A DNA stretch of 64,000 nt from an uncultured Chloroflexia bacterium (GCA_963749735.1 CAVVNZ010000003.1:96300-160299), one strand, 5' to 3'; shown: positions 3,401-39,167, numbered from the stretch's first letter. Made by a program: numbers and translations. Notes: generated from the sequence alone by a model not told the origin.

Positions 3401-3636
3401 GCGGCGGACCCGTCGGACGCGGCACGCCCCTCGGTCGCGGCAGGCTCCCCGGCCTGGCCACGATCCCGGACCCCCGCCACCAGCTCGGCGACGAGCCGGC
3501 TCTTGCCGATGCCCGCCTCGCCGTCGATCAGCGTCATCGAAGAGTGGCCGTCCGACGCCGCCTCGACCGCCGCCAGCAGCCCGGCCAGCTCGCCCGCGCG
3601 ACCGACGAAGACCGGGCTCGTGACTCGGCGTGCCAT
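432..3636 (-). CDS. LuxR-family large ATP-binding transcriptional regulator (LAL/MalT-like: AAA ATPase, TPR-like helical region, C-terminal LuxR HTH), frameshifted
   Basis: The N-terminus at 3636 has Walker A ([11 protein letters not shown]). The track ORF 1779..3461 carries [12 protein letters not shown] and [11 protein letters not shown] 617..2398 carries AELAYHW plus TPR-like helices. ORF 450..1010 carries the LuxR HTH ([44 protein letters not shown]). The pieces lie in at least four frames. Reconstructing a 1-nt shift near 475 restores the canonical C-terminus [17 protein letters not shown] with stop at 432-434. Confidence 0.75.
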
Positions 3637-9831: not shown

Positions 9832-11025
9832 ATGACGTCTCCGCGCGATCCCGCCGAGCGCTCGGCCCAACGTGGACCGAGCGGCGGCAAGCCCGGCCGG
9901 GACGTCACCCCGTCCCCGAAGCAAGACCGTCGCGGGCTCATCGTCGTGGGGACGATCGGCGCACTGGGGCTCATCGTGGCTGCCCTCGCGCTGTACGTCT
10001 CCGCCACCAAGCAAGCGCCGGCGGCGGACTCGGCCTGTCGGACGATCGCCTGGAACGCGGTCCCGACGAGTGACTCCCTCCCCACGGGCTGGACGATCAA
10101 CGGCAGCGGCTTCTACACGGACGGTTACGGCGCCTCGCTGAGCGGCCCTACCCCGTCGGGGACCCCCACGACCGGCCCGGCGATGAACGTCCGGGTCAGC
10201 TGCTACGGCGCCGACGGCCACGTCGTCGTCAAGCGCTCGCACGACTCGGACCTGGCGGTCGGCGGCACCGACGTCCCGTTCGCCGACGTCGGCGACGAGG
10301 CGCTGGCGACCGAGGACTCGACCGGGACGACGACCTCGGTCTACATCCGGCGCGGCCCGCTCGTCGCCTCGATCGCGGCGCAGAACATGACGCCCGACGA
10401 CCTCACCCAGGCCGCCACGGCGGTCGACGACGCGATGGTCGCGGCCGAGGCGAAGGGCCCGACGATCAGCGGGCCGGCGCCGACGCTGGCCCCGGGGTCT
10501 TCGATCGACCTGGGCGCGATCCCGTCCGAGGAGATCCCGTCGGACATCCCCGAGCCGACGCCCACCGAGGCGCACGCCTTCGCCGACCTCGAGGCGATCA
10601 TGCCCAAGTCCGTCGACGGGACGCCGATGTCGGTCCAGAGCACGACGGGGACCGACGTCCTGGCCGGTGACCCCACGAGCGACGACCTCGTCGCGTGGAT
10701 CGGGACGAAGGGCAAGAAGACGGCCGATCTGGAGGTCGCCGAGGCGTTCGACCCGACCTCCTCGGTCGACGCCGACATCACGGCGCTCAAGCTCAACGGC
10801 GTCGCCCCGAACGAGCTCCGCCAGGAGCTGCTCAAGACGTGGCTAGGCGCCAGCGCATCGGGGATCACGACCAAGACGACGTCGGTCGGTGGCAAGACGG
10901 TCCTGGTCATCGACTACGGCGACCAGGGCGCCCTCGACTACGTCTTCGAGCAGGGCGGCGCCGTCGTCATCCTGTCGACCTCCGACCCGGCGCTGGCCGG
11001 CCGCGTGGTGTCGAGCTTCAAGTAG
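9832..11025 (+). CDS. Membrane-anchored extracytoplasmic protein of unknown function
   Basis: Intact 397-aa ORF. A single N-terminal TM (LIVVGTIGALGLIVAALALYV) is followed by a Thr/Ser/Pro-rich ectodomain. Confidence 0.7.
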   Translation: MTSPRDPAERSAQRGPSGGKPGRDVTPSPKQDRRGLIVVGTIGALGLIVAALALYVSATKQAPAADSACRTIAWNAVPTSDSLPTGWTINGSGFYTDGYGASLSGPTPSGTPTTGPAMNVRVSCYGADGHVVVKRSHDSDLAVGGTDVPFADVGDEALATEDSTGTTTSVYIRRGPLVASIAAQNMTPDDLTQAATAVDDAMVAAEAKGPTISGPAPTLAPGSSIDLGAIPSEEIPSDIPEPTPTEAHAFADLEAIMPKSVDGTPMSVQSTTGTDVLAGDPTSDDLVAWIGTKGKKTADLEVAEAFDPTSSVDADITALKLNGVAPNELRQELLKTWLGASASGITTKTTSVGGKTVLVIDYGDQGALDYVFEQGGAVVILSTSDPALAGRVVSSFK

Positions 11026-11037
11026 GGCGCCAGTCGC

Positions 11038-11786
11038 CTACGGCAGCGTCCAGAGGTCGATGCAGAACATGCAGCCGGCGCCGCCATTGCTCCGGTTCAC
11101 CCAATCGACGAGCGCGCCGATGTCCTTGTCCTTGCCGACGACGCCGATGTAGATACCCTGCCCGTCCAGCTCACCCGGCATCCGAATGCGAAGGTTGGCG
11201 ACGCCGGCCGCGTCGATGTAGCACCCGATCCGCTGGGCATAGGCGTCGACTCCGGGGATGTCCACGCCTTCTCCGGGCTTCCCGTCCTGGCACGCGTTCC
11301 CGCTGTCGAGCTTGACGCCATTGTCGGCCAGGCGAGCGCGGTAGAGCGGGTTCAGCGACGAGTTCTTCGGGAAGCGATAGAAGCCGACCAGGGAGGCAGG
11401 GCCGGCTGGGGTGCATTCGACGCCGGCGTCGGCGCCGTCGGGCAGCTGCGTCGCCGGGACGCAGGACGGCCGGATCTTCTTGTCGATCCCGGACAGGATG
11501 AAGAGCTGCGCGCCGGTCCAAGCGCTGACCGGCGGCTGGGTCGCCGCGGCGGTCGTCGGGGCCGGCGTCTTCGCGGCGGTGCTCGGCCCAGCGCTGGCGG
11601 CCGCCGACTCGGGCGGTGTCGCCGAGGGCGCGGGCGGGAGCGTCTCGGAGGTGATGACCGGCGATCCGGGACCCGACGCCGTCGAGCTCGTGATCGCGCA
11701 TCCGAGCGAGGAGCCCGACGAGGGTACCGGCGAGGAGCGCGCCACGCGCGACTCGTCTCCGTGGCGTGGCACCGGGAGATTGCATG
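11038..11786 (-). CDS. Putative lipoprotein with a Tat-like signal, frame disruption near 11700
   Basis: ATG at 11786 gives MQSPGATPRRRVARGALLAGTLVGLL. The other frame continues ...LGCAITSS (L-L-G-C lipobox) into a Cys-containing secreted body. Confidence 0.5.
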
Positions 11787-11808
11787 TCCCGAGCATACGC
11801 GCCGCCGA

Positions 11809-13308
11809 TCAGCTCGACGTCGAGTCGAGTGCCTCCGATGTGTCGCGCCAGCGACGCAAGGCGCGGTCGAACACGTCGAGCGCCCCGCCGGAGAAGAGCA
11901 CGAAGTCGATGCGCTCGATGGAGGTCGGAACCGACAGGTGCTCCGCGGCGGTCGCGACCGCGATCGTCGCAGCCGCCTCGATCGGGTAGCCATAGATGCC
12001 GGTGCTGATCGCGGCCGCGGCGACGGTCCGGGCGCCGGCCTCGTTCGCGACCTGGAACGCGGTCCGATACGCCGAGGCGAGGAGCTCCGGCTCCCCGGCC
12101 GCGCCGCCGTGCCAGACCGGGCCGACGGCGTGGACGACCCACCTGGCGGGAAGATCGCCGGCGACCGACAGGACGGCCCCGCCGGTCGGGCAGTGGCGGT
12201 CCCGACCGTAGCGGCGCTCGAGGTCGGCCATGATCGCTCGGCCGCCGGCTCGATGGATCGCGCCGTCGACGCCGCCGCCGCCGACAAGCCCGCTGTTCGC
12301 GGCATTGACCAGCGCGTCGGCGCGGACGCGCGTGATGTCGCCCTGGATCGTGCCGATGACCCGGTCCCCGATCGCGATCTCGCTCACGATCGCATTCTGC
12401 GACCGAAGGATCACAGGCGCAGCGACCGACCGACTACGGTGCCGCGGACCCCCACCGGCGGTCGGGACCGTCTGCCCGGCGATGGCCTGCAGGAGGTGCG
12501 CGGTGTCCGCACCCAGCCCCGCGTCGTATCCAAGCCCGACCGGGCTCCGCCCGAGGATCGTCGCGTACATCACGCACGCGGCGAGGTAGGTGCCGGCCAT
12601 CGTGGGATGGCTGCCGTCGGGTTGCCACAGGTCGATCTGCGGGGCCGTCAGCCGCGCGGTCCGCCAGGCGATGCCGACTGGCGCGACCTGTGCGCCGACG
12701 TCGCTCGCCACCTGATCGTAGCCCTGCTCGAGCGCGGCCTCCATCGTCGCGAAGTCGGGCAGGCCGTCGCCGATCGAGCCGTCGCGATGGGCCCATGTCT
12801 CGAACAGGATCGGCCGCGCGCCGATCGCCCGGATCTTGCCCACGAGCGTCCTCGCCGCCGGCTCCATCCGCTGCATCCGGGCTGCGAGGATCGCCGGGAC
12901 CTGGCTCTGCTCCTGGAGGACCACGACATCCCAGCCCGGCGCGGCCAGCGCGGTCTGTGTCTCCGGGAGGCTGACATGCCCGGCCAGCTCCTCGCCGCCC
13001 GGCGCGACCTTGCCCGTCCCGACGTGCTGCCCGCCGGACGCCGCCAGCTCGGCAAATACATGGGGCAGGTCGTTGACGTCCGTGTAGCTATTGCCGATGA
13101 ACAGCACGCGCTCGCACGACGCGCCCTCGAGCGGCCCACAGCCGCCCGCGACCGACCAGCGCCCGGTCAAGATCAACGCGCCCAGGATCGCGATGACGAC
13201 GAACGCCACCGCCCCGAGCAACGCGAACGGCACGCCAGCGCGCCGGGGTCGCGCGATCGCCATCTCGGTCATGGCGGGAGCGTGGTCGTCCCGCACGCGC
13301 GTCGCCAT
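11809..13308 (-). CDS. Membrane-anchored SGNH/GDSL-type hydrolase fused to a macro (ADP-ribose-binding/O-acetyl-ADP-ribose deacetylase-like) domain
   Basis: Intact 499-aa ORF. An N-terminal TM (VPFALLGAVAFVVIAILGALIL) is followed by VLFIGNSYTD...VVVLQEQSQ. The macro domain reads GDITRVRADALVNAANSGLVGGGGVDGAIHRAGG...ISTGIYGYP. There is no stop or start between the domains. Confidence 0.75.
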   Translation of the reverse strand: MATRVRDDHAPAMTEMAIARPRRAGVPFALLGAVAFVVIAILGALILTGRWSVAGGCGPLEGASCERVLFIGNSYTDVNDLPHVFAELAASGGQHVGTGKVAPGGEELAGHVSLPETQTALAAPGWDVVVLQEQSQVPAILAARMQRMEPAARTLVGKIRAIGARPILFETWAHRDGSIGDGLPDFATMEAALEQGYDQVASDVGAQVAPVGIAWRTARLTAPQIDLWQPDGSHPTMAGTYLAACVMYATILGRSPVGLGYDAGLGADTAHLLQAIAGQTVPTAGGGPRHRSRSVAAPVILRSQNAIVSEIAIGDRVIGTIQGDITRVRADALVNAANSGLVGGGGVDGAIHRAGGRAIMADLERRYGRDRHCPTGGAVLSVAGDLPARWVVHAVGPVWHGGAAGEPELLASAYRTAFQVANEAGARTVAAAAISTGIYGYPIEAAATIAVATAAEHLSVPTSIERIDFVLFSGGALDVFDRALRRWRDTSEALDSTSS

Positions 13309-17703: not shown

Positions 17704-18341
17704 GGGTCCCCCTCGAGGAGTTCGCGGGCGATCGCGATCAGGCGATCGACCTGTTTGTTCTGCAGGCGGCTGAGTGGTCGCCGGACATGCAGCTCGATGT
17801 CCGGGGTCAGGGCGACGCGGTCCCACTGGGATCGGTCGGCCCCGACGGCTTGCGGGGGCGGTTTGGGCGGCGGAGTGGGTGGGGTGGAGTCGGGTTCGGC
17901 CGCGTCGAACGCCCGGTCCGTCTCCAGGAAGTCCACCCGGCGAAGCATCAGCGGGGCTGCGCTCGGCGCGGGTCTCGATGCCGGCGGCGAGCCGGCGGGC
18001 TCCCCCCGTGTGGTGCCCGTCGACTTCGCCAGCAGGGTTCGGATGTAGTCGATCGCGGGCTCCTCGGCGACGGCGAGCGGCTCGGAGCCCAGGAGCTCCC
18101 GGACCTGGTCATCGTCGAGCGGTTCGAGCCGCGACCGGATCTCGGCGAGCGGCAGATGCTCGCGCTGGAGCCGCCGAATCAGCCGGAGCCGGTCGAGATG
18201 ACCGTCGGTGTAGCGCGCCGCGGGACCGACTTTGTCGGGTGACGGCAGGAGGCCCTGCGCGATGTAGTAGCGCACGGTTCGCGGGGTGACCCCGACCAGG
18301 TCGGCGAGGTCGGTCAGGCTGTATTCGTTGTCGGTGGGCAT
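17697..18341 (-). CDS. MerR-family transcriptional regulator (214 aa)
   Basis: ATG at 18341 begins MPTDNEYSLTDLADLVGVTPRTVRYYIAQGLLPSP (MerR HTH). The stop lies 1 nt before the vWA start. The upstream part of track ORF 17697..19208 is read-through into another gene's antisense or off-frame sequence. Confidence 0.8.
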   Translation of the reverse strand: MPTDNEYSLTDLADLVGVTPRTVRYYIAQGLLPSPDKVGPAARYTDGHLDRLRLIRRLQREHLPLAEIRSRLEPLDDDQVRELLGSEPLAVAEEPAIDYIRTLLAKSTGTTRGEPAGSPPASRPAPSAAPLMLRRVDFLETDRAFDAAEPDSTPPTPPPKPPPQAVGADRSQWDRVALTPDIELHVRRPLSRLQNKQVDRLIAIARELLEGDPS

Positions 18342-18352
18342 AGGCGTTATTA

Positions 18353-18376
18353 TGACAGTGCAACGTGCCACTGTCA
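18353..18376. promoter_or_regulatory. Candidate MerR operator: perfect palindrome TGACAGTG-N8-CACTGTCA, 12 nt upstream of the MerR start
   Basis: Read from the sequence. MerR regulators typically bind long-spacer dyads in their own promoter. Confidence 0.45.
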
Positions 18377-18433
18377 AGAGTCTGCCGCGTGGAATGTGGC
18401 CTCCGCGGCGTCGGCGACGAATTGCTCCCCTGA

Positions 18434-19260
18434 TCAGGCCTCGATGCGGGGTCGATCCACGGGCGCGAGATTGCGCTCGGGCGCCCAGCGCAGCGCGAGC
18501 CGCCGGTCGGCCCGGTCGAGCTCGATATCGGCGGCGACGACGCCCACCCGGCCGTAGTCGAGGCTCGCGACGAGCGTCCCGTCGGGGGCGATGATCCCGG
18601 TCAGCGAGCCCTGGTCCGGCCCGGCCACGTTCGACGCGGCGACGTAGACCGTGTTCTCGAGCGCGCGGCACATGATCGCCTTCTCGTTGTAGGGGTTCGC
18701 GGCGTCGCACCAGCGCGTCGGCAGCGAGCCGTCGTCGGTCGTCACGTAGTGCGGGATGAAGACGACCTGCGCACCCGACGAGGGCGAGCGACCGGGCGAT
18801 CTCCGGGTAGCGGAACGCCTCGTGGCAGATCGCGATCCCGAAGGTCACGCCTTCGGCCGTGAACACGCGGCGACCGGTCCCGGGCGTGTAATCGGCCTCC
18901 TCGGACGGGTCGATCTGGGTCTTTGCCTGGACCCCGAGCCGCGTGCCGCCCGCGTCGATCACGACCGACACGATCTCGCGGCCCGGCGGTCGTCGGGCCG
19001 CTCGGTCCCGACGATCGCCACGACCCCCGCGCGGGCGGCCGCCTCGGCCACGACGTCCAGGGCGGCCTCGAGCGCCTCCGCCGAACGTCGGGCACGGGCC
19101 GCGCCTGGACCCGATGGCCGGGGATCGCGGTCTCGGGCAGGCACACGATCCGGGCGCCGAGCCGGCCGGCCTCCTCGATCGCGGCGACCGCCGCCGGCAC
19201 GGCGTCATCGATCGTCGCCGTCAGCGGCGTCGAGGCGACCGCGATCCGGATCGTGGACAT
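18434..19260 (-). CDS. Carbon-nitrogen hydrolase (nitrilase superfamily), frameshifted across three frames
   Basis: Track ORF 18742..19260 reads IRIAVAS...RIVCLPETAIPG. ORF 17697..19208 reads GVTFGIAICHEAFRYPE. ORF 18434..18745 reads NPYNEKAIMCRALENTVYVAASNVAG...GVVAADIEL. Confidence 0.65.
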
Positions 19261-19482
19261 GCCGCGAATCTACCGCGCCCCGTACCACCTTCGGGCGGGC
19301 GCGGGACCACCTGCGACACCCGCAGGATCGCCCGGGCGTCGTAGGGTTCACGCGACGGGCCCGCGCGGGCCGGGGAGGAACCACTGGACAACGCCGCTGC
19401 CGCCGAACGGCCTCCGAGCCTGATCCGGCGCGGCTGGACGCTGCTGACGTCGGCGCTCTTCCGCGGCGCGATCGTCCTGTCG

Positions 19483-21702
19483 GTGCTCGGGTTCATGGGT
19501 TATGCGATGGGCCTGGTCCGCGACCGGATCTTCGCCCGGACGTTCGGGGCCGGCCCCGAGCTCGACGCCTACAACGCGGCCTTCGTCCTGCCGGAGCTGG
19601 CCCTCGACGTGCTGGTCGCCGGCGGTCTCGTCGCCCCGTTCATCCCCGTGTTCATCGGGCTCCGGACGCAGGCCGACGAGGCCGCCAAGGCGTTCGCCCG
19701 GACGATCCTGACCCTCGCGGTCGTGGTCATGGCGGTCGCGTCGGCGATCCTGTTCGTCCTCGCGCCGCAAACGGTCGCGATCATCGCCCCCGGCTTCTCG
19801 CCGGAGCAGCAGGCGATGTACGTGAACCTGTTCCGGATCATGTGCTTCACGCCCGTGATCTTCGCTGCGTCGATCGTCCTCGGCGAGATCCTCGTGGCCA
19901 ACGGCCGGTTCTTCGCCTATGGTCTTGCGCCGCTGCTCTACAACGGCGGGATCGTCGTGGGAACGGTGCTCCTGTATGGGCAGCTCGGGATCTATGCCGC
20001 GGCGGTCGGCGCCCTCGCCGGAGCCCTGGCCCACCTCGGCGTCCGGCTCGTCGGCATCTACCGGACGCCGTTCCGGCCACGCGTCAGCTTCGCGCTCCGG
20101 GCGAAGGGGGTCGGCGAGTTCATCCGGCTGATGATCCCGAAGATGGTCAGCCATCCGATCGAGCCACTGACCTTCCTGTACTTCACCGCGCTCGCCTCGA
20201 CGCTGGCGCCCGGCTCGGTGAGCTCGGTCAGCTTCGCCCGGAACTTCCAGAGCGTCCCCGTCAGCCTCATCGGCGCGGCGTTCGCGATCTCGGCGTTCCC
20301 GATCATGTCGTCGGCCGCGGCGTCCGGCGATCGGCGTGGCTTTGGCCGGGTCTTCGGGATCAACTTCGCGGTCATCGCGATCCTCACCACGGGCGCGGCC
20401 CTCGTCCTGTTCGTGTTCGGCGGGACCGCGATCCGGATCCTTCTCGGCGGCGGGGCGTTCGAGGAGGACGACATCGCCCGGACGACGACGATCCTGGCCG
20501 TGTTCGCCTTCTCGATCCCGTTCGAGAGCCTGACCCACCTCCTCAGCCGGGCGCTCTACGCGACCCACAACACGATCCTGCCGACGCTCGCCTCGATCGC
20601 GGGCTTCGTGGTCATCGTCATCGCCGGCCAGACGCTGTCCCCGACGATCGGCCTGTCGGCCGTCCCGGCGGCGTTCGCGATCGGGATGGCGGTCAAGGTC
20701 GGGATCCTGGTCGCCGCGCTCGCGCCGCGGATGGCCCGGATCGGCGTCCAGCCGCTGTCGACGCCACGCGACACGCTCGAGGTCCGCGGATCCCCGGTGC
20801 GGCGACGGGCGACGCAGGCGATCGTTGCGGTCGGGCTCGTGCTGCTCGCCGTCGGAACGGTCTACGCGACCGGCAAGGCGCTCAACGACGCGACGCTCGC
20901 GGTCGCGCCGGTGGTGACGCCGTGGGCCCGGGAGCGGCCACCGGCGGCGGTCGTCGCCGTCCCGCCGATCGCCTCGCAGCGGCCGGGGACGTCGGGCTCG
21001 TCCGGTGGTGCGGCCTCGTCGGCCGGTCCGGGCGCGTCGTCGGCCCCGGGCTCTGGCGCCGGTGCTGGTGCGTCATCGGCGCCCGGCGACTCCCCTGCCC
21101 CGACGCCGAGCGGGCCGTTCTCGATGGACCTCTACCAGAAGGGCGACTACGTCGGCGAGTTCCGCGACACGTGGTGCCTCGCGGCGGCGGTCCAGACGTC
21201 GATGAACATCATGGACGACGGCGCCGACACGACGCGGGCGACCCAATCGAAGGTCTTCGACCTCACCCGCTCGCTCGAACCGGCGCCCGACGGCGCGGCC
21301 GAACCCGAGGGGTGGGCACAGGGCCTGACGGAGCTCGGCTACGGGAACTACGAGGTGGACATCCTGCCGTCGATCAAGGCGGCGATCCACACGGCGGCGA
21401 AACAGATCCGGCTGACCAACCGCCCGGCTGGGCTGATGGTCTGGCGCGGCGCCCACTCGTGGGTGATGTCGGGGTTCACCGCCAGCGCGGATCCGGCGTT
21501 GACCGACGACTTCACGGTCTCGACGGTCCGGATCGAGGACGTCTGGTACCCGCGCCTGTCGTCGATCTGGGGCTACTCGCGCGCGCCGGACGCCTCGTAC
21601 AAGGTCAGCGACCTGGACCAGGACTTCCTGCCCTGGAAGCGGCCGCTCGGGACCTACCCCAAGAAGACGGACAACTACGTGATCGTCGTCCCCGTGGAGT
21701 AG
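19483..21702 (+). CDS. murJ: MurJ/MviN-family lipid II flippase with a ~200-aa C-terminal extracytoplasmic domain; true start probably lies upstream near 19380-19430
   Basis: Multi-TM MurJ-like body (RDRIFARTFGAGPELDAYNAAFVLPE...). An extra TM and a Ser/Gly/Ala/Pro-rich linker precede a globular domain containing DTWCLAAAVQTSMNIM. The in-frame sequence upstream of 19483 (PSLIRRGWTLLTSALFRGAIVLSVLGF) looks like TM1, but no canonical start lies after the stop at 19342. Confidence 0.75.
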   Translation: MLGFMGYAMGLVRDRIFARTFGAGPELDAYNAAFVLPELALDVLVAGGLVAPFIPVFIGLRTQADEAAKAFARTILTLAVVVMAVASAILFVLAPQTVAIIAPGFSPEQQAMYVNLFRIMCFTPVIFAASIVLGEILVANGRFFAYGLAPLLYNGGIVVGTVLLYGQLGIYAAAVGALAGALAHLGVRLVGIYRTPFRPRVSFALRAKGVGEFIRLMIPKMVSHPIEPLTFLYFTALASTLAPGSVSSVSFARNFQSVPVSLIGAAFAISAFPIMSSAAASGDRRGFGRVFGINFAVIAILTTGAALVLFVFGGTAIRILLGGGAFEEDDIARTTTILAVFAFSIPFESLTHLLSRALYATHNTILPTLASIAGFVVIVIAGQTLSPTIGLSAVPAAFAIGMAVKVGILVAALAPRMARIGVQPLSTPRDTLEVRGSPVRRRATQAIVAVGLVLLAVGTVYATGKALNDATLAVAPVVTPWARERPPAAVVAVPPIASQRPGTSGSSGGAASSAGPGASSAPGSGAGAGASSAPGDSPAPTPSGPFSMDLYQKGDYVGEFRDTWCLAAAVQTSMNIMDDGADTTRATQSKVFDLTRSLEPAPDGAAEPEGWAQGLTELGYGNYEVDILPSIKAAIHTAAKQIRLTNRPAGLMVWRGAHSWVMSGFTASADPALTDDFTVSTVRIEDVWYPRLSSIWGYSRAPDASYKVSDLDQDFLPWKRPLGTYPKKTDNYVIVVPVE

Positions 21703-21741
21703 GTCGGCCCGGGCGGCCGGATCAGTCGAGCAGGCGCGGGG

Positions 21742-22551
21742 TCAGCCGGCGGTCGACGGCTCGATGGCGGGGTGGTCGGATGCGCCGTTCTTGGCGATGG
21801 TGGTCATCGTCGTCGGGATGGCGGCCTCACCCTCCACCTTGTCGAAATGCGCGCTGCGCTCCACGCGCTGCTTGATGCCGAGCATCTGGCGGCGCTCCAT
21901 GACGAAGACGCCGAAGCCGAGCGTCGGCATGAGCACCTTCGTTCCCGGGTTGCCCTTGCCGAACCAGCCGCGGGTCCGCTCGATCAGGCGGGTCCGTCCG
22001 GGACCGGCCGGCTCGAGCACGAACGCCCAGCTGACCTTGAACTCCTGCGGCGAGGCCGCACCGAGGAAGTTGCCCGACGCCGCCAGGCCGGGGGTCTCCG
22101 TTGCGGAGATCGACTCGGCGGGCTTCTTCTGCCAGCCCTCGACGAGGGCGGTGTCGAGGTAGACGACGAGCGCCTTGTTCGGGTCGAGGACCTTGACCTC
22201 GAAGCCGCCGTCCTCGTGGGTCGGGAGCTGGTCGCCCACCTCGAGCTTCTGCAGCTCGGGCAGGATCCGGTCGGCGCTCAAGCCCTTCATGTCGAGGCGG
22301 TCGTAGCTATACCAGCCGGCGCGGCCGTAGCCCATCTGGACGAGCCAGGGCCAGATGCTCTCGGGCGGAGCGTCGATGGTGATGCCGCGGGTCAGCAGGT
22401 TGGTGCCGTCGGGGACGAGCTCGTCGCCGGGAAGCGCCTTGTCCTGCTCGGCGGGGTCGACACCCCACGTCGATGACCATTCGTTGATCCTGCGATAGGC
22501 GCCCCAGGCCGCGAATGCGAGGGTCGAGCCGACGACGATGCGCTTGAGCAT
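21742..22551 (-). CDS. Membrane-anchored SRPBCC/START-like fold protein (hypothetical)
   Basis: Reading from MLKRIVVGSTLAFAAWGAY (TM) into a ~240-aa soluble domain. Intact ORF. Confidence 0.55.
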   Translation of the reverse strand: MLKRIVVGSTLAFAAWGAYRRINEWSSTWGVDPAEQDKALPGDELVPDGTNLLTRGITIDAPPESIWPWLVQMGYGRAGWYSYDRLDMKGLSADRILPELQKLEVGDQLPTHEDGGFEVKVLDPNKALVVYLDTALVEGWQKKPAESISATETPGLAASGNFLGAASPQEFKVSWAFVLEPAGPGRTRLIERTRGWFGKGNPGTKVLMPTLGFGVFVMERRQMLGIKQRVERSAHFDKVEGEAAIPTTMTTIAKNGASDHPAIEPSTAG

Positions 22552-28427: not shown

Positions 28428-28517
28428 GGACGGACGCTAGGCCGTTCGCCTCAGCGGGTCCGTGGCCCGTTGGTCCCGAGTCGATGGCCCTATCGGGGCG
28501 CGCCGACGCAGGACCCG

Positions 28518-29348
28518 TCAGGCGTGGGCGGCGCTTGTGTGGGCATGGCGCTGGCCGGCCGGGAGCACCCCGACCACGACCATGGCGACCTCGATCAGTC
28601 CGACGATCAGGAACACGCCGAGGACGACCGGGTCGGCGGCCGTGCCCGCCGCGGCCTGCCGCACGAACAGCCCGACGATCCCGAGGATGATCAGGATCGT
28701 GAACGTCAGCGCGGCCAGCGACAGGGCCGGACCGCGATGGTCGCGTCGGAACAGGAGCACGCCGGCGAGCCCGGTGACCGGCAGCGAGAAGGCCAGGTCG
28801 AGGCCATACACCGGGCTGGTCGGCAGACCGAGCACGGTGACGCTCGCGGGCAGGACCCCGCTGGTGATCGCCCCGGCGATCTGGCCGAGCCACAGCGCCG
28901 CGAAGGCGAGCGCGCTGGCGATGAGGATCGCGGCGGTCGATCGGCGCGGCAGCCGCTCACCGACGTCGAGGTCGAACCCGTCCTCGACGAACGCGATGAT
29001 CGCCAGGAGCAGGGACCACGTGGCGAGCCCGAGGATCGCGATGTAGACCGGCGTGAGCGGGTTGATCGTGACCGAGAACGAGAAGATCGCGTAGGTGTAC
29101 GCCAGGTAGCCGACGACGCCGAGCGCGACGAACCGCCCGCCCGCCCAGCCGCTCCGCTCGAGCCACAAGCCCAGCAGCAGCGCGGGGACGCCGACCGCGA
29201 GGGTCGCCAGATCGGTCGGCTGGGCCTGGTCGACCATCGCCGGCACGTCGCGGTAGATGCCGGTCAGTAGCCCCGTCGCGGCTGCGAACGCGGCGAGCGC
29301 GGCGGCGCCGAGCGCGAATCGGTCACTGAGCTGGATCCTGCCACGCAT
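28518..29348 (-). CDS. Hypothetical polytopic membrane protein (276 aa), paralog of the gene at 61823-62656
   Basis: ATG at 29348 with a GGGAGGG Shine-Dalgarno. A shared block with the second copy reads DLATLAVGVPALLLGLWL...YLAYTYAIFSFSVTINPLTPVYIAILGLATWSLLLA. The upstream part of the track ORF is off-frame noise. Confidence 0.7.
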   Translation of the reverse strand: MRGRIQLSDRFALGAAALAAFAAATGLLTGIYRDVPAMVDQAQPTDLATLAVGVPALLLGLWLERSGWAGGRFVALGVVGYLAYTYAIFSFSVTINPLTPVYIAILGLATWSLLLAIIAFVEDGFDLDVGERLPRRSTAAILIASALAFAALWLGQIAGAITSGVLPASVTVLGLPTSPVYGLDLAFSLPVTGLAGVLLFRRDHRGPALSLAALTFTILIILGIVGLFVRQAAAGTAADPVVLGVFLIVGLIEVAMVVVGVLPAGQRHAHTSAAHA

Positions 29349-29686
29349 GGCGGCCCTCCCATCGTCCGGTGCTGTCCGTCCCGTATCACGGGCCACGTCC
29401 AGTAGGCCGCAGGAAGGTCTGCGAATCCGAGTGCCATCCGTCACGATGCCGTCGGGCCGTTCGAAAGGTGCCGGCGGTCGGCGGGATCCCCGGGTCAGCG
29501 ACCCCAGGTGCGTTCGTCGGAGACGGCGGACCGGGCGACCCGGGCCGAGGCAGGGGCGGCGAACGATGCCAGGCCCGCGACGGTCGCGCCGGTGCGGATC
29601 GACCGGAGCCGCCGGACGGCGACGTCGCGTTCGCGTGGTCGGAGGGGTGACGGATCGCTCATGCGCGCAGTCTCCCGGGGCGCGCC

Positions 29687-32026: not shown

Positions 32027-33742
32027 TCAGTGGACGCGGAAGGTGTGGGAGCTCGTCTTGGACGCGACGACGTGGCCGTCGGTCGCGCTGAGGATCCGGA
32101 CCTTGACCGTATAGACCCCGAGGCGACGCGTCGACGACACGTGGAAGACCGGCGTGACCGAGATCGTCGCGCCGGTCCCGAACGTCCTGGCCGCGTAGGT
32201 CTTGCGGAAGGCGAGGTGGCCGGCCGGATCCCACACGTCTACGCTCACCTTGCCCCGCGTGGCCGCGGATGCCTTGGCGCGCGCCGTGATCCGGACGTCG
32301 TGGTTCCGGGTCAGGCTGGTCGGACTCACCGAGGCGCTGAGGGTCCAGGTCGCCGCGGTCGAACCGCCTCCCCCACCACCACCGCCTCCGCCGCCTCCGC
32401 CGCTCCCGGGGTCGAGGGTGAGGGAGCCCGCGGTGTAGTACGCGGCCGCCTGCTCGTGGAAGTAGCCGCCGTCATCGTCGGCATCGAGCGACGCGCGGGT
32501 GTTCCCATTGATGGCGGGCGGGTTGGTCGTCCCGTCGTTCTGGCCGTCGCAGGCGCAGGTCGTGCCGTCGGCGCCGCCGCCGAACATCAGCCCGATCACC
32601 CCGGCATCGCGCCAGATCGCCAGGTGCGTCCCGCCCGGATCGTCGAGGAACCATTGGACCCGGTTGTCCTGGTAGTGACCCCAGGTGTTGTCCTGCGCGC
32701 GCATCTTCGTGTTCCCGAGCGGGATCTGCCAGACGACGACCCGCTGTCCCGCGCCGGCCACATACCCGGCCACGAACCGGGCGTACCGGACGAAGTCGGC
32801 GTCGTCCCAGCGGGACGCGCCGCCGTCGCCGTAGACGATCTCCTTGAAGCTGGCGTCCCGGTCGGCGATGTCGGTGAACGTCACGTCGAAGTGGGCGCCG
32901 AGCGACTGATAGAACGCCGCCGCGCGGGCGGCGAGTGCGTCGACCGCCGCATCCGAGCTGTTCGAGTAGCTGATGTCCGTGTTCGTGCCCCAGACCGACA
33001 GGTGGTAGGCGAGGATCACGTTCGGGGCGAGCTGATCGCGGAGCTTGACCACGGCCTGGGCGAACCCGGCGGCCGTGTTCGGCAGACCGGTCAGCGACGC
33101 ATCGCCCGAGCTCGCGACCGAGGCCGGGATGGTGGTGGCGTCGTCGCTCGTCCCACTGGCCTGCTCGATGTAGCCCCACAGGTCGGGTTCGAGGTGCAGG
33201 ACGACGGGTGTCGCCCCGGCGGCCCTCGTAAAGAACAGCCGCAGATCGTTGTAATACGCTGCCATGGTGGTGTGGTTGGCCAGGTTGGACAGGTCCTTGG
33301 CCGATTCGGTCGAACCGGTGGCCGGGTTCGACTGGAGCAACATGTAGTACGGGAAGACCGGCGTGACCTGGTTCGCCGCGGAGTCGGCGACGTAGTACGT
33401 CACGAACTGGCCGTTCGTATTCCAGGTGGACCACCCGCTGCCGGTGTTCACCCCGCCGGCGAGGTATTGGTAGCGGAAGCCGAAGGCCGCCGAGGCGTGG
33501 AGCGCGGCGGCGCCGCCCGGGGCGTCGGCCAGCCCGAGCTCGAAGTGACTCGACGGCCAGGTCGCCGGCATCGCCGGGAGCGCGGCGAGCGCCCTGGGCT
33601 TCGGGGCATCGATCGTGCTCCCACGAACCGACGGCGCGCCGAACACCAGTGCGGCCGTCGGCGTCAACAGCCAGGCGCCGATCGCGACAGCGATCAGGGC
33701 GACCAGAAGGCGACGGCTCGAGTGGAGGGTCGTGGGCAACAT
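32027..33742 (-). CDS. Secreted protein, probable glycoside hydrolase-like catalytic domain plus a Gly13 linker and a C-terminal beta-sandwich domain
   Basis: ATG at 33742 begins the signal MLPTTLHSSRRLLVALIAVAIGAWLL. The linker GGGGGGGGGGGGG is encoded by a GGN-codon repeat (minus strand) at 32377-32415. The C-terminal ~110 aa are beta-rich. Confidence 0.7.
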   Translation of the reverse strand: MLPTTLHSSRRLLVALIAVAIGAWLLTPTAALVFGAPSVRGSTIDAPKPRALAALPAMPATWPSSHFELGLADAPGGAAALHASAAFGFRYQYLAGGVNTGSGWSTWNTNGQFVTYYVADSAANQVTPVFPYYMLLQSNPATGSTESAKDLSNLANHTTMAAYYNDLRLFFTRAAGATPVVLHLEPDLWGYIEQASGTSDDATTIPASVASSGDASLTGLPNTAAGFAQAVVKLRDQLAPNVILAYHLSVWGTNTDISYSNSSDAAVDALAARAAAFYQSLGAHFDVTFTDIADRDASFKEIVYGDGGASRWDDADFVRYARFVAGYVAGAGQRVVVWQIPLGNTKMRAQDNTWGHYQDNRVQWFLDDPGGTHLAIWRDAGVIGLMFGGGADGTTCACDGQNDGTTNPPAINGNTRASLDADDDGGYFHEQAAAYYTAGSLTLDPGSGGGGGGGGGGGGGSTAATWTLSASVSPTSLTRNHDVRITARAKASAATRGKVSVDVWDPAGHLAFRKTYAARTFGTGATISVTPVFHVSSTRRLGVYTVKVRILSATDGHVVASKTSSHTFRVH

Positions 33743-33831
33743 CGGTGTGCCCCCGATCGTCCCCCGCCCCGCCCGCCGAGTCACTCCCTCGCTCGTCCGG
33801 CGAGCGACCGTACCTTGGTCGGTGCCCGGCG

Positions 33832-36800
33832 TCACCGTCGCCGGCGACGCCCTCGCTTGTGGCTCCGGCGGTTGCGCCGAGGGCGGCGCGGGTACGCTGG
33901 GCGTGCCAGGCCAGCCCGAACTCGTCGAACCGAGCCGCGGCCGCCTCGATCAGGTCGTCATCCCCCCGGGCGATGCCGAGGGCGCGCCAGCCGAACGGCT
34001 CGACCAGGGTGGTCGGCACCAGGAGCGCCGGCGCCTCGGCCTCGACCGTCGCCATCTCCCCGAGGGCGAGCAGGATGTCGAGCCGGGCGGTCGTGGTCGT
34101 GATCCGGTAGTAGTTCTTGGTCGGCGGCGGGATCGTCGTCGGGATGAGGCGACGGGCGGCGTCGAGGTCGCCCCGCCGGAGTGCGAGCCGTGCTCGGATC
34201 GGGTCGAACACCGCTTCGTAGCCCTCCATCGCCAGCGCCTCGGCCACGCCTTCCAGCCGCCGGGACTCCTCGTCGTATCCGAGCTCGGCGGCGGCCAGCG
34301 CACAGGCCAGCAGGGAACGCTGGTTGCGCACGCAGGGGGTCGCCAGGTTGTCGACGACCGCCCGTTCGGTCCGCTCGGCGAGCGACAGGAGGTCCGCCCA
34401 CTCGCCGCACAGCTCGGCCAGCTCGACGAGCATCGCCACGGCGTGGAGCCGGTGGTGCGGCGAGAGCTGGATCGCGACCTCGTCGTGGAGCCGGGCGAAC
34501 CGCCGCGCCTCGGGCAGCATCCCCAGCGCCACGTTGCCGGTGATCGCCGCGCCGTACAGGTCCTCGAGATGATCGAGGTCGTGGATCCGGTCGGCGAGGC
34601 TCGTCCGCCGCTCCCACCATCCGTGCGCGGCGACATCGTCGCCGGAGGCGAAAGCGCTCAGGGCGCAGGCATCGAACGAGTACGACAGCAGGGCCGGGTC
34701 GTCGAGCCGCTCGGCGATGGCGATCGCCTCCTCCGGTGCGTCGCCGGCATCGAGGGGATGCCAGTCGGCCGAGGCGATCAGCGCGACGGCCCGGGCGCGC
34801 GAGCCCGACTCGGCGAGGGCGAGCGCCTGCTCGATCCAGCCGTCGACGAGCTCGCGGCTCGGCATCCGCTTCCAGATCGCCCAACGGAACGCGGTCTCGA
34901 AGGCGAGCTCGGCGTAGATCGCCCCGCGCGCCGCATCCGACGACGCGGTCGCGATGGCCTGCTCCATCGCCGTCCAGAAGCCGACCCCGTCGTAGCGCAG
35001 GACGTTCGCCCGACCGATCGCCAGCCAGATCGCCGACCGTTCCTCGATCGTCGGCTCGAGGGTCAGCGCCCGCTCGAGGAGCTTCACAGCCTCGTCGATG
35101 GCGTATCGCGCGACGGCGAGCTGGGCGGCCCGGACCGACCAGTCCCTGGCCTTTCGGCGGAGGGCGGTGAGGCGCTCCGGCTCGCTCGCCCAGGCGAGAT
35201 CGACGTCCTCCGGTCGGACCGCCTCGGCGTAGTGATGGGCGAGCGTGGCCGCGTGCTCGTCGCGCCCGTCGCCGTCATGCTCGACGCGCTCCGCATAGGC
35301 GGCGTGGAGCCGGGTCCGCCGCGTCGTCGGCAGGCTGTCATAGGCCACATCCCGGGTGAGGGCGTGCTTGAAGGCGTACCCCCCGGCCGCCCCGTCGGTC
35401 GGGCGAGAGACACGGCGGATGAAGTCCCGGCTCCGCAACGTCACGAAGTCCGGCTCGGCACCGCCCAGCAGCTCGACGATCGCCTCGGGTTCGAACCGGC
35501 GGCCGATCGACGGCCCCGGCCTGGAGCGCCGTCTTGTCGAGCGGGGCGAGCAGATCGAGCCTTGCGGCGAGGAGCGCCCTGGACCGAGTCGGGGACGGCC
35601 AACGAGCCTGCCGTCTCGTCGAGCCGCCACACCCTCGGCCCCGTGGGTCAGGACCCCGCGCTCCGTCAGGGTCACGATGAGCTCCTCCAGGAAGAAGGGG
35701 TTCCCCTCCGCCCGGTCGACGACGAGATCGCCCAGGACCGGCGGTGCCGGACCATCGAGGAGCGCCGCGACCATAGCGTCGGCCTCGGCGCTCGACAGCG
35801 GATCGAGCCAGATCGTGGCGGCGCGACGGTGGGTCGCGACCCAGCCGGGGCGACTCCGGGCGATCTCCGGTCGGGCCGTCGTCAGGACGAGGAGCGGTCC
35901 GTCGACCTCACGTCCGATCCGCTCGAGCAGGTCGAGGAGCGGCGGCTCGGCCCAGTGGATGTCCTCGACGAGGAGGATCGACGGGCGTTCGGCGACGACC
36001 TCGTCGAGCAGCGCGACCCAGGCGTCGTGCAGACGGGTCTGCGCGGCCATCGGGTGGAGGTCGCCGGCCGTGTCGAGACCCATGGTCAGCCCGAGGATCG
36101 TCCGGGTCGCCGAGCAGCTCGAGCACCCGCTCCGGGGGGTCTGACTCCGGATCCCGAGCTGCCCGCGAAGGACCTCGGCGAGCGGCCAGTAGGTGATCCC
36201 CTGGCCGTACGCGGGACAGCGGCCGATCCGGACGATCGGTGGCGGCGTGCCGCCGCGAACCGACCCGAGCCAGCGCCGGACGAGGGTCGACTTGCCGACC
36301 CGGGATCACCGACGACGCGTGATGGTCCGCGGCTCGGCTTCGTCGACGGCCCGCCGGAATGCGCCGTCGAGGGCAGCCAGCTCGTCCCCGCGGCCGACGA
36401 AGGTCCGGCCACGCCGGCGGGGTCGGGTGTCGGTCGACTCGGTCGGATGCAGGCGCGTCGCTCCGTTCTCCCCTCGCGAAGGTGAACGTCCCGCGGACCG
36501 ACGCCAGCGCCCGCGGTCCGACGAGGATCTCCCCGGGTGCGGCGGCGCGAGCCAATGCGGCGGCCGCGTCGACCGCGGCACCGGCGATCGTAGGCCCGTC
36601 GGCGGGATCCGCCGCGGCGATCACCTCGCCGGCCTCGATGCCCACCCCGACCGCCGGCTCGTCGCCGCCGGGATCCGCCGGCCCGACGGCGGATCGCGAG
36701 GGCCGCCCTGAGCGCGCGATCGGCGTGGTCCTCCTGGGCGCTCGGCGACCCGAATGCCGCCATGACCGTCCCGTCGGCCAGTCCCGATGACGCGGGCCCT

Positions 36801-37737
36801 GCTCGGACGTACCTCCGCCGCGATGTCGGCGAGGAAGCGCCGCTGGAGATCGTGGCGGCGTTCAGGATCGGTCGACGCGAGGCGGGTCGCCGCGAGGGCG
36901 GCGAACAGGACCGTGACGAGCTTGAGCTCGGGACGCCGCCGGAGGCTCCGGTCCGTCCTCCAGGGAGCCCGACCCGGTCCGGCGCATCGAGGCTCGGCTC
37001 CTGGCGCAGGATCGCCTGCTCAAGGTGCTGGAGCTCGGGGCTCGGCTCGAGACCCAGCTCGTCGACCAGCGTCGTCCGCAGGTCCTGGTACGCGCGCAGC
37101 GCGTCGGCCTGGCGACCGGCCCGATACAGGGCGAGCATCAGCTGTGCATGGGGTCGCTCGTGGAGCGGCTCGGCGGCGATGAGCGCCTCGATGTCGCCGA
37201 TCAGCGCAGCATGCTGCCCGAGGGCCATCTCGGCGCTCGATCCGGTCCCCGATGACCGCCAGCCTCGCCTCCTCGAGCCGGGCGATCGCCGCGGGGGCGA
37301 AGGGCTCGCGGGCGAGGTCGGCCAGTGGGGCGCCGGTCGACAGCGCCTCGGCAGCGCGGAGGAGCCTGGCCGCGCCGGCTGGGTCGCCGCCGTTGAGCGC
37401 CCGTCGGCCACGCCCCGCGAGACGGTCGAATCGCGTGAGGTCGAGCTCGTCGGGCTCGACCCGAAGGAGGTAGCCGCCGGGGCGGGTGAGCAGTCGGGGC
37501 TCGCGCTCCCACGGCTCCATGACGCGGCGGAGGCCCGAGACGTAGACCTCCAGCGCGTGCTCGGCCGTCGCCGGCGGCGACTCGCCCCAGAGCGAGTCGA
37601 CGAGCCGGTCGATCGAGACGAGCTCGTTGGCATGGAGGAGCAGGACGGCGAGCATCGCACGTTGCTTGCCGCGCTGGAGCGGCAGCTCCGTGTCGCCGTC
37701 GCGGATCGCGAGCGGTCCAAGGACCCTGAACTCCATC
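33832..37737 (-). CDS. Giant multidomain regulator: SARP (OmpR/PhoB-type winged helix plus BTAD), class III nucleotide cyclase domain, AAA (STAND-like) ATPase, and TPR-like helical C-terminus; several frame disruptions
   Basis: ATG at 37737 with a GGAGG Shine-Dalgarno. The SARP DNA-binding domain reads MEFRVLGPLAIRDGDTELPLQRGKQRAMLAVLLL...LWGE. The BTAD reads AEMALGQHAALIGDIEAL...ELQHLEQAILRQEP. The cyclase is RRPELKLVTVLFA (another frame), DGTVMAAFGSPSAQEDHADRALRAALAI, and GIEAGEVIAAADPADGPTIAGAAVDAAAALARAAAPGEILVGP. The ATPase is FVGRGDELAAL, Walker A VVGDPG(V)GKSTLV after a 1-nt correction, and LLVEDIHWAEPP...GNPFFLEEL. No in-frame stop or start separates the domains. The C-terminal end is approximate. 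Confidence 0.6.
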
Positions 37738-37868
37738 CCTTGAGGGACCTCCGGCGGGAAGGTAGCACCTGTCCGTTGAGCCGTCATTGAGCATTCGTTG
37801 AGCCGCCCCCGATGTAGTGGCCGGGGGGCGACGCTCGCTCGTCCCGAGGATGGACAGGAGGCACAGCG

Positions 37869-39167
37869 ATGTTCAGGCCCAAGCTCCGCGCCGCGCCGTT
37901 GCTCCTGGGACTCGGCATGGCCGTCCAGCTCGCGACGGGGGTCGCCCCGGTCGCGGCTCACGCGCCGGTCTCGGCTGCAGGCGGCCCTCGACTGGAACCT
38001 CATCGCCGTCACGACCGTGCGCAGCGTGGCCCCGGCGAAGTTCCAGACCGAGGGGCATGATCTACATGTCGTACACGCAGGCGGCGGTCTACGACGCGGT
38101 GACCAAGATCGACGGCCGCTACCAGCCCTACCACCACTTCCACGCGCCTGTCAGCACGCGCCACGCGTCGTCGACGGCGGCGACCGCAGCGGCGGCCTAC
38201 ACGACCCTCGCCTACTACTTCCCGGCGCAGGCCGCGACCCTGACGACCACGTACGACGGTTACATCGCCGGGCTGCCGACCGCGGGCCGGGCGGCCGGAG
38301 TCGCCATCGGAACCGCGGCGGCCTGGGATGTCATCCACCTCCGGATGACCGACGGACGTGACGCGCCGACCGCCGTCTACGGCCTGGACCGTTGGCCCCG
38401 GGCTCGTGGCAGGTCGTCCCGCCGGCGACCTCGGCCCAGACCCCGTGGGTCGCGTTCATGAAGCCGTTCATGCTCAAGCGCTCGTCGCAGTTCCGAGCGG
38501 CCCTGCCGCCGGCGCTGTCGAGCGGGGCGTGGGCCCGCGAGTTCCAGGAGACCAAGGACTTCGGGTCGGCGACGAGCTCGGTCCGGACCCCGGACGAGAC
38601 GGCGATCGCGTACTTCTGGAACGCGAACGTCATCAACCAGTACAACCAGGCCTTCCGCGACCTCGCCGAAAAGAAGGGCTTCGACCTGGTCCAGGCCGCT
38701 CGCCTGCTGGCGATGGGCGATCTCGTCGGCACCGACGCCCTGATCGCCTGCTTCGACACCAAATACCACGACCTGTTCTGGCGGCCGTACACGGCCATCC
38801 GGAACGCCGACATCGACGGCAACGCCGCGACGACCGCCGACCCGACCTGGACGCCGTTGCTGGCGACGCCGAACCATCCCGAGTACGCGGCCGCCGACGG
38901 CTGCATCACCGGCGCCGAGGCCGAGGTCTTCGCGGCGGTCCTCCACACCCGTCACGTCGACCTCGACATCCCGGGCGCGACGCTCGGCGGCACCACGCTG
39001 ACCACGTCCCGCCACTTCGCCACAACGGGCGCGCTCGTGCGCGAGATCGTCAACGCCCGGGTCTGGGCCGGCCTGCACTATCGCGGCTCGGGCCTCGCCG
39101 GGGTCAGATCGGGCGCCAAGTGGCGCATTGGACCCTCGATCGGTTCTTCGCCCCGACGCACGGCTGA
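37869..39167 (+). CDS. Secreted PAP2-superfamily / vanadium-dependent haloperoxidase-like protein, frameshifted across three frames
   Basis: ATG at 37869 has a GGAGG Shine-Dalgarno and a signal peptide. The motifs are WRPYTAIR, NHPEY, the GAEAE region, and WAGLHYRGS (PAP2 motif 3). The C-terminus reads ...HWTLDRFFAPTHG with stop at 39165-39167. Confidence 0.65.

Follow-up and report, generated by a model that had tools for sequence, protein, structure and literature searches.

The stretch of DNA analyzed here, called the window throughout, is 64,000 nucleotides from an uncultured Chloroflexia bacterium (GCA_963749735.1 CAVVNZ010000003.1:96300-160299). Its minus strand between positions 33832 and 37737 encodes peptides of a SARP-type DNA-binding head, a class III nucleotide cyclase, a STAND-like ATPase, and a TPR-like tail, and the locus raises the question of whether these belong to one transcription factor, whether the cyclase is a working enzyme, and which gene the protein controls. 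A reading of the sequence alone had proposed a single fusion protein that couples cyclic nucleotide synthesis to the activation of a divergent haloperoxidase-like gene. The analysis described below gives a partly different answer. The locus probably encodes one large one-component activator (~1298 amino acids) that consists of a SARP head, a dead cyclase fold, an AAA_16 STAND module, and a TPR-like tail; its frameshifts are most probably errors, and the haloperoxidase-like gene is its predicted target.

One regulator gene read in three frames

The sequence-only reading described one uninterrupted coding run at 33832-37737 and suspected that its frames were faulty. The peptides that it quoted were all found on the minus strand where it had placed them. 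Three-frame translation scatters these module peptides across all three minus-strand frames, the plot of GC content at third codon positions shows repeated frame changes across the minus-strand coding signal from 37736 to 33832, and the open reading frame (ORF) listing gives three separate minus-strand ORFs in two frames (37020..38012, 36086..37768, and 32472..36083). The GC content of the window is ~72%. Homologues were collected as the best 120 hits in 90%-identity clusters (P0001-P0120). The best of these, P0001, is an intact protein of 1297 amino acids with 84% identity, and its contig, L001, belongs to a soil metagenome-assembled genome (MAG) labelled 'uncultured Chloroflexia bacterium MFD02134.bin.2.85'. 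L001 and the window are colinear over ~20 kb at 87-88% DNA identity and share a gene order of M14 peptidase, GH2, GH36, abhydrolase, LPG synthase, VCPO_2nd, regulator, 588-amino acid protein, 348-amino acid protein, and AlkZ-like.

Indels were called by DNA alignment of the window gene to the intact orthologue at L001:10001-13894. The window copy differs by 14 single-base indels, 11 insertions and 3 deletions, which scatter the coding signal over three frames, so the coding run is not uninterrupted and the suspected frame correction was needed. The corrected gene starts at ATG 37736 and stops at TGA 33834-33832, nearly the limits first proposed. Its 15 frame segments total 3894 nt, a multiple of 3, and the stitched protein has ~1300 residues. 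A tblastn search places P0001 residues 1-1296 colinearly on window positions 37736-33837. Orthologues in L001 and in the related loci L002/L003 and L004, together with ~100 homologues, are single intact ORFs of ~1250-1400 amino acids, which bears out the proposal that the fusion is one gene. The gene, its domains, and its neighbor are as follows.

33832..37736, minus strand: frame-corrected regulator gene, ~1298 codons, with SARP, cyclase-homology domain, AAA_16 STAND NTPase, and helical/TPR-like tail; split over three frames as read
37470..37670, minus strand: OmpR-type winged-helix DNA-binding domain Trans_reg_C, residues 23-89 (PF00486, E=2.9e-9, 37.3 bits versus a cut-off of 26.2)
37007..37445, minus strand: BTAD, residues 98-243 (PF03704, E=1.2e-42, 146.2 bits, profile positions 1-146 of 146)
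36460..36926, minus strand: degenerate class III cyclase-homology domain, starting LKLVTVLFAAL (family profile, Rv1900c match, AlphaFold2 (AF2)/Foldseek)
35879..36404, minus strand: AAA_16 / STAND P-loop NTPase core, residues 447-619 (PF13191, E=5e-19, 69.8 bits versus a cut-off of 32.6)
36316-36279, minus strand: Walker A, GDPGVGKST, split by the indel pair 36317/36299
35975-35946, minus strand: Walker B, LLVEDIHWAE (peptide coordinates)
33832..35878, minus strand: STAND arm and long helical, TPR-like C-terminal region (family-invariant motifs; family-profile TPR match)
35705-35679, minus strand: invariant GNPFFLEE motif (family alignment)
37869..39167, plus strand: secreted vanadium-haloperoxidase/PAP2-like gene, the predicted target; ~432 amino acids when frame-corrected, with a signal peptide and 4 frameshifts

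The frame-breaking changes in the regulator, from the alignment to L001, are as follows.

37235, ~36965, ~36932, ~36781, ~36673, 36475, 36317, ~36106, 35630, 35580, and 35508, minus strand: +1 indels
36299, ~36147, and 33837, minus strand: -1 indels
35508..37235, minus strand: 13 of the 14 indels, crowded into 1.7 kb where local GC is highest (0.73-0.765)
33832..33837, minus strand: stop-displacing deletion, a 1-base loss at 33837 (L001 GGCGAGCGGTGA, window GGCGA-CGGTGA)

The deletion at 33837 throws the TGA at 33834-33832 out of frame, and the long C-terminal ORF therefore runs on to 32472. The frame is unbroken from 35507 to 33838. For annotators, the locus is an example of how a single 3.9-kb gene can fall apart into several spurious ORFs through indel errors.

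The SARP head and a predicted operator

The frame-stitched protein was scanned against Pfam at E<=0.01. Trans_reg_C and BTAD both score above their Pfam cut-offs, which agrees with the complete SARP DNA-binding domain plus BTAD that had been proposed; the BTAD is interrupted by the +1 indel at 37235. The family profile matches the SARP domains of AfsR (residues 25-278, E~1e-73) and EmbR (E=2e-68). Alignment of the N termini shows that the winged-helix domain carries a clade-specific recognition helix, AEHALEVYVSGLRR, and that this recognition helix (AEHALEVYVSxLRR) is confined to the clade linked to the VCPO gene. By analogy, this head would activate transcription in the SARP manner, through contact with RNA polymerase.

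The divergent haloperoxidase-like gene was found at 37869-39167, as reported. Its frameshifts relative to L001 are at 37976 (+1), 38052 (+1), 38385 (-1), and 39105 (-1). The orthologues in L001, L002/L003, and L004 have a precomputed PF22778 (VCPO_2nd) annotation, although Pfam and NCBIfam scans of an orthologue returned no match. The nearest solved structure in a PDB sequence search is 4CIT, the Zobellia vanadium-dependent iodoperoxidase (E=1.1e-19). The vanadate/phosphate motifs K-x6-RP and R-x5-H are present as KYHDLFWRP and RVWAGLH. Motif 2, (P)SGH, reads AAHG in the orthologues, a replacement of Ser-Gly by Ala-Ala, and AADG in the window copy. This His-to-Asp difference lies around 38950 (window PEYAAADG versus PEY[AP]AAHG in L001, L002, and L004) and may reflect either an erroneous base or a genuine inactivating mutation. 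The divergent pair of regulator and VCPO gene is kept in L001, L002/L003, and L004, where other neighbors change, with regulator identities of 68% for L002/L003 and 52% for L004; the pair was not found at the more distant family members examined.

The two genes share a 133-bp intergenic region that is better conserved than coding DNA, with a mean column identity of 95% in a 304-column alignment spanning the region. It contains the following elements.

37776..37804, plus strand: predicted SARP box, TTGAGCC gtca TTGAGCA ttcg TTGAGCC; three direct heptamers with an 11-bp period, directed toward the haloperoxidase-like gene
37813..37818, plus strand: -10-like element TGTAGT, 8 bp downstream of the 3' heptamer
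37857-37862, plus strand: ribosome-binding site AGGAGG, downstream of the -10-like element

The triple-heptamer pattern is unique in the 64-kb window even when 3 mismatches are allowed, and 0.00 occurrences are expected by chance. The heptamers are conserved and the spacers vary in L001, L002/L003, and L004, and the -10-like element reads TTTAGT in L001, TGTAGT in L002, and CCTACT in L004. No heptamer box lies upstream of family members without a VCPO neighbor. The published rule for SARP operators places the repeats 11 bp apart and the 3' repeat 8 bp from the -10 element (PMC10936776). The box at this locus has exactly this geometry, and binding to it is predicted. A metagenome scan for TTGAGC-N5-TTGAGC-N5-TTGAGC gave at least 120 matches; among those listed, none has a haloperoxidase-like gene nearby, L002-L004 are not included, and one stretch weakly resembles the regulator (29% identity over residues 269-896, no SARP head). 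The listed stretches seem to be tandem repeats and chance occurrences. The conserved gene pair and the conserved box in the shared intergenic region strengthen the earlier suggestion that the haloperoxidase-like gene is a plausible target, and we conclude from these alignments that the regulator probably turns it on.

The cyclase-homology domain is degenerate

A segment of 145-207 amino acids separates BTAD from AAA_16 in 120 of the 120 best homologues. A profile of this segment matches solved class III cyclases in the PDB (E=1.5e-32), positions ~263-449 of the full-length family profile align to class III cyclases, and the window domain alone matches the cyclase-homology domain of Rv1900c (E=2.6e-5). 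The AF2 model of the domain has a mean predicted local distance difference test (pLDDT) of 84 and a predicted template modeling score (pTM) of 0.82, and Foldseek relates it to RhGC, Rv1625c, CyaC, and Rv1900c (probability 1.00, TM 0.75-0.81). The window domain holds the +1 indels at ~36781, ~36673, and 36475; those at ~36965 and ~36932 lie just upstream in the linker from BTAD. As judged from the profiles and the structural model, the cyclase homology is real and the fold is kept.

The catalytic residues are not. The canonical signature is D-K-D-N-R, set in the motifs FADLVGST, EKFIGDAVMA, and GDAVNxAARLE. The corresponding columns read A-G-G-D-A in the window protein, AGGDG in P0001, and AGGER in P0002 and P0003. 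At metal site 1 (FxDxxGST), Asp is replaced by Ala in the window sequence FAALAAT. At metal site 2 (xGDxxMA), 'GD' has become 'DG' (window ADGTVMAAFG), which puts Gly at the site and shifts Asp by one. The transition-state motif (GDxVNxAARxE) reads GAAVDAAAALARA in the window, with Asn changed to Asp and Arg changed to Ala or Leu. The HMMER alignment to Rv1900c gives the same losses. Guanylate_cyc (PF00211) has no match in the Pfam scan of the window protein and is absent from the precomputed annotation of P0001-P0003 and P0005. The ratio of nonsynonymous to synonymous substitution rates (dN/dS) is highest in this domain, at 0.26. Thus, the cyclase module of the sequence-only reading stands as homology by profile, Rv1900c match, and AF2/Foldseek, but not as a Pfam Guanylate_cyc match or an intact active site. 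Its further claim that the protein couples cyclic nucleotide synthesis to promoter activation does not hold, given the signature AGGDA instead of DKDNR and the failure of PF00211 to score. The sequence indicates that the central domain at this locus is a catalytically dead pseudo-cyclase, and cyclic nucleotide synthesis is not expected of the window protein.

The STAND NTPase and the C-terminal region

AAA_16 scores above its Pfam cut-off, Walker A and Walker B are intact and conserved throughout the family, and the residues G481, G483, K484, E593, and H596 are invariant in a family alignment of 39 sequences. The arm and C-terminal region contain the +1 indels at 35630, 35580, and 35508. Positions 1003-1096 of the family profile match the TPR proteins LGN/Pins (E~6e-8, ~95 positions), and some distant relatives are annotated with TPR_12 or TPR_MalT; no TPR family was detected by Pfam in the window protein itself. 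The AAA part of the proposed AAA-TPR module is therefore secure, but its TPR-like character is seen only at the level of the family profile. The Pfam scan detected no LuxR/GerE helix-turn-helix in the window protein, which ends ~20 residues past the conserved GLAWHAQRTRA, as P0001 does.

Proposed mechanism

The observations on which a model can be built are the domain homologies, the loss of catalytic residues, the single-ORF orthologues, the conserved gene pair, and the conserved box geometry. If AfsR and the SARP-LAL regulators are taken as a guide, the protein would be kept autoinhibited by its NTPase and C-terminal region, and release would follow ATP binding and/or a signal sensed at the C-terminal region. 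Adjacent SARP protomers would next occupy the three TTGAGCN heptamers. The heptamers would take the place of a -35 element, with 8 bp between their end and the -10 element of the divergent gene. RNA polymerase would be recruited, and the secreted vanadium-haloperoxidase/PAP2-like protein would be switched on. The dead cyclase domain may serve as a structural or dimerizing spacer between head and switch and not as a source of cAMP or cGMP. If the model is true, never-cultured bacteria provide here a compact triplet of regulator, operator, and target, with a SARP head, a 29-bp box, and a single secreted target.

Alternative explanations

The broken frames bear on whether the gene is alive and whether it is one gene. 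The regulator and its target could be genuine, recently inactivated pseudogenes, in which case the frameshifts are real and the regulon is decaying in this lineage. Several observations speak for decay and against our reading: the 14 indels in the regulator and 4 in the predicted target lie beside several intact neighboring genes of 2-4 kb (the flanking LPG synthase, 602-amino acid ORF, and GH2 genes are unbroken), most of the indels fall outside homopolymers and are not changes in homopolymer length, and the window copy of the target has Asp in place of a catalytic His of motif 2 that is conserved in L001, L002, and L004. Together they make recent decay of regulator and target an explanation to be reckoned with. 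However, the frame-corrected regulator has zero nonsense codons, and its dN/dS versus L001 is 0.18, as in intact neighbors (0.10-0.19). dN/dS alone is unable to tell recent decay from error, and a relative-rate test with L002 as the outgroup is more decisive. Unique amino acid changes number 46 in the window and 48 in intact L001, and unique changes at codon positions 1+2 number 64 and 81, so the window lineage has no surplus. The window protein deviates at 29 of 248 conserved positions versus 23-24 in intact relatives and retains all of the family-invariant residues. These comparisons indicate that the regulator is under ordinary purifying selection without lineage-specific acceleration, and it would be very unusual for 14 real frameshifts to come without surplus substitutions. 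The indels show strong clustering and are not gene-wide, and their bias toward insertions is opposite to the deletion bias that is usual for bacterial pseudogenes. Five other window genes are also frameshifted, namely GH36, the abhydrolase, the 348-amino acid protein, the haloperoxidase-like gene, and the LAL regulator at 450-3636, so that unrelated genes are hit too. Because there is no substitution excess, the indels cluster in GC-rich DNA, insertions predominate, and unrelated genes are affected, we regard the 14 regulator frameshifts as likely assembly or sequencing errors and decay as rather improbable. A division into two or more genes, one for a small SARP and the next for a cyclase-AAA-TPR protein, would fit the separate ORFs of the ORF listing and the existence of stand-alone cyclase-AAA_16 proteins without a SARP head (e.g. 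P0037, P0040-P0056). Against this division, the ORF boundaries in the window fall at single-base indels relative to L001 and not at stop/start pairs, each orthologue in L001, L002/L003, and L004 is a single ORF, and P0001 aligns colinearly along the whole gene; we consider it scarcely credible.

The identification of the heptamers as an activating site for the haloperoxidase-like gene also has points against it. TGTAGT lacks the usual A at position 2, a simple sigma-70 promoter scan found no consensus promoter in the intergenic region, and terminator and promoter consensus scans found nothing there or at the 3' end. Moreover, the distance from the box to the ATG of the regulator downstream of it is only 40 nt, and for this reason autoregulation could occur also, or instead. 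The array would then be an autoregulatory operator for the regulator's own promoter. Two minus-strand elements that are also conserved in L001, a -10-like TACCTT and a -35-like ATGACG, overlap with the repeats, and the PimR box is likewise located in a shared divergent region (PMC3367932). On the other side, the 3' repeat is exactly 8 bp from the -10-like element in all four loci, and the box is seen only where the haloperoxidase-like gene is the neighbor. The classical SARP repeat has the consensus TCGAGXX, and TTGAGCN resembles it when read toward the haloperoxidase-like gene. We think it unlikely that the array is an autoregulatory operator and not an activating site, although the two roles are not mutually exclusive. 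The reading of the central domain as dead has its own weak points: there is a small chance that the domain has some non-canonical activity, because Asp is found beside metal site 2 and Arg two positions from the canonical one, and the catalytic columns come from MAFFT and HMMER alignments that disagree by one position at the Arg site. An active cyclase that makes cAMP or cGMP and is coupled to SARP-type activation would be in keeping with the clear fold and homology to class III cyclases. In addition, 31 SARP-headed relatives (e.g. P0007-P0010, P0014, P0019) keep D-K-D-N-R and score on PF00211, so the idea is plausible for part of the family. In the window protein, P0001-P0003, and P0005, however, both metal Asp residues and the transition-state Asn/Arg are substituted, PF00211 does not score, and the high dN/dS of the domain points the same way; activity at this locus is very unlikely. 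The model as a whole is weakened by its reliance on analogy for DNA binding, activation, autoinhibition, the signal, and the role of the cyclase-like domain. With these points set against it, a single SARP-headed activator of the haloperoxidase-like gene is still the probable reading.

Distribution of the family

The sequence-only reading knew of no precedent for a SARP head on a cyclase-AAA-TPR body. The architecture is in fact frequent in public databases. A SARP head is present in 103 of the 120 homologues, the precomputed annotation of 54 of the 120 best hits contains PF00486, PF03704, PF00211, and PF13191 together, and some homologues already carry the JGI label 'SARP family transcriptional activator/class 3 adenylate cyclase'. 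The homologues with this architecture all come from MAGs or metagenomes, and among the matches listed for GTDB species genomes, the relatives are all MAGs of Actinomycetes, Gaiellaceae, Thermoleophilia, and Chloroflexota. A full-text literature search, with one old cyclase survey outside its reach, found no paper that joins SARP/BTAD to an adenylate or guanylate cyclase domain. By these database matches, this is a widespread family in uncultured soil bacteria, with an architecture that is real and common in databases and for which no describing paper was found.

The heads found on the cyclase-AAA_16-helical body are SARP (103/120), a zinc ribbon (PF13240, e.g. P0040, P0049), or none, and proteins of ~2200 amino acids (P0062-P0068, P0077) seem to carry extra modules. 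The below-threshold NCBIfam match of the cyclase-AAA part to the TOMM kinase/cyclase fusion family points to a common body on which SARP, kinase, and zinc ribbon heads, or no head at all, can be exchanged for one another. D-D-N-R is kept by 44 of the 120 homologues, of which 31 are SARP-headed (~1/3 of the SARP-headed relatives). The alignment suggests that the family mixes probably active and clearly degenerate cyclase domains, with the window locus in the degenerate group, and several lineages appear to have lost the catalytic signature separately.

We tentatively extend this to a broader proposal, which is less likely than not. It holds that a SARP-cyclase-homology-STAND family in uncultured soil Actinomycetota/Chloroflexota has its cyclase wired between the head and the NTPase switch; the cyclase would be active in about a third of members (D-K-D-N-R) and elsewhere would have decayed repeatedly to a structural pseudo-enzyme, the regulator then being dedicated to a single neighbor gene. 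If so, second-messenger synthesis and promoter activation would be under one switch in the D-K-D-N-R members. The presence of intact and dead cyclases in one architecture is a natural series for studying how a STAND transcription factor makes use of a cyclase domain.

Other genes in the window and related loci

A second large LAL-type STAND regulator lies at 450-3636 on the minus strand. Its AAA_16 N terminus begins at ATG 3636, its middle part is TPR-like, and a LuxR helix-turn-helix lies at the C terminus. The coding sequence passes through at least four reading frames and thus has at least 3 frameshifts. Other window indels relative to L001 are, between 40865 and 43536 on the minus strand, at 43536 and 42938 in the GH36 alpha-galactosidase and at 41064 and 40865 in the abhydrolase, and further at 31774 and 30955 in the gene for the 348-amino acid membrane protein (plus strand). 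The GH2, LPG synthase, 602-amino acid ORF, AlkZ-like, and GGDEF genes are intact.

Directly downstream of the regulator, 32027-33835 on the minus strand encodes a conserved secreted protein of ~572-602 amino acids with a 13-residue poly-Gly linker. It is syntenic in L001 and in L002 lies behind an inserted PNPOx gene. It had no Pfam or NCBIfam match and has no heptamer box upstream. L001 positions 18222-21954 (~3.7 kb with ApbE, ferric-reductase/NADH-dehydrogenase-like, and ferredoxin genes) do not align to window positions ~28500-29554, which indicates a small gene-cluster indel between the two genomes. In L004, a Crp-type cNMP-binding (cyclic nucleotide-binding) transcription factor and an anti-Pycsar Apyc1-like metallo-beta-lactamase-fold gene lie at 10347-12097, ~4 kb downstream of the P0005 regulator. 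Both relate to cyclic nucleotides, which may be a coincidence.

Comparison with known systems

By domain composition, the closest named class is SARP-LAL. Its members (PimR, PteR, SanG, and PolR of Streptomyces) combine SARP and AAA_16 without a LuxR helix-turn-helix (PMC12224297), and the window protein likewise opens with a SARP head, continues with a P-loop of the AAA_16 type, and ends in a long C-terminal half that has no LuxR helix-turn-helix. It differs in the ~190-amino acid cyclase-homology domain between BTAD and the P-loop, in having no biosynthetic gene cluster around it, and in its hosts, which are uncultured soil bacteria and not Streptomyces. PimR, which is stated to be without a guanylate-cyclase signature, binds three direct heptamers, separated by 4-bp spacers, between its own gene and its divergent target (PMC3367932). 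The predicted box has the same three heptamers, 4-bp spacers, and divergent intergenic position, but its heptamer is TTGAGCN instead of CGGCAAG, and it stands at the canonical 8 bp from the -10 element, whereas the PimR box does not.

AfsR (SARP, NOD, TPR) also fuses a SARP head to a STAND NTPase and a TPR-type sensor. Its autoinhibition is released in an ATP-dependent manner, and it binds side by side to 11-bp direct repeats that overlap the -35 element (PMC10936776). Only the SARP part of AfsR aligns to the window protein. The AfsR NOD does not, consistent with an AAA_16 (LAL/MalT-like) switch rather than NB-ARC, and AfsR is without a cyclase-homology domain. The NCBIfam AfsR model scores 195 bits versus a cut-off of 1430. 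EmbR of Mycobacterium tuberculosis shares the SARP head (E=2e-68 with the family profile) and has a C-terminal FHA domain in place of the cyclase-like, NTPase, and TPR-like parts.

The body of the protein has its counterpart in mycobacterial Rv0386, Rv1358, and Rv2488c, which have the same order of class III cyclase-homology domain, AAA_16 P-loop, and helical/TPR region. Those proteins end in a C-terminal LuxR helix-turn-helix, whereas the window protein begins with SARP and has no detected LuxR/GerE domain. The Rv0386 cyclase domain is reported to be active, and the domain here has lost its catalytic residues. The TOMM kinase/cyclase fusion model (NCBIfam TIGR03903) aligns at positions 311-914 to P0001 residues 290-868 (E=2e-60), but that family has a kinase head instead of SARP, and the score of 205 bits versus a cut-off of 706 marks a non-member. 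If the proposed model is true, the SARP-LAL class extends beyond Streptomyces gene clusters and, through the common cyclase, AAA_16, and helical body, is linked by descent to the mycobacterial cyclase-LuxR regulators. What the sequence comparisons add to the known systems is a putative SARP-LAL-type STAND activator that retains a cyclase-homology domain and has a well-defined predicted operator and target.

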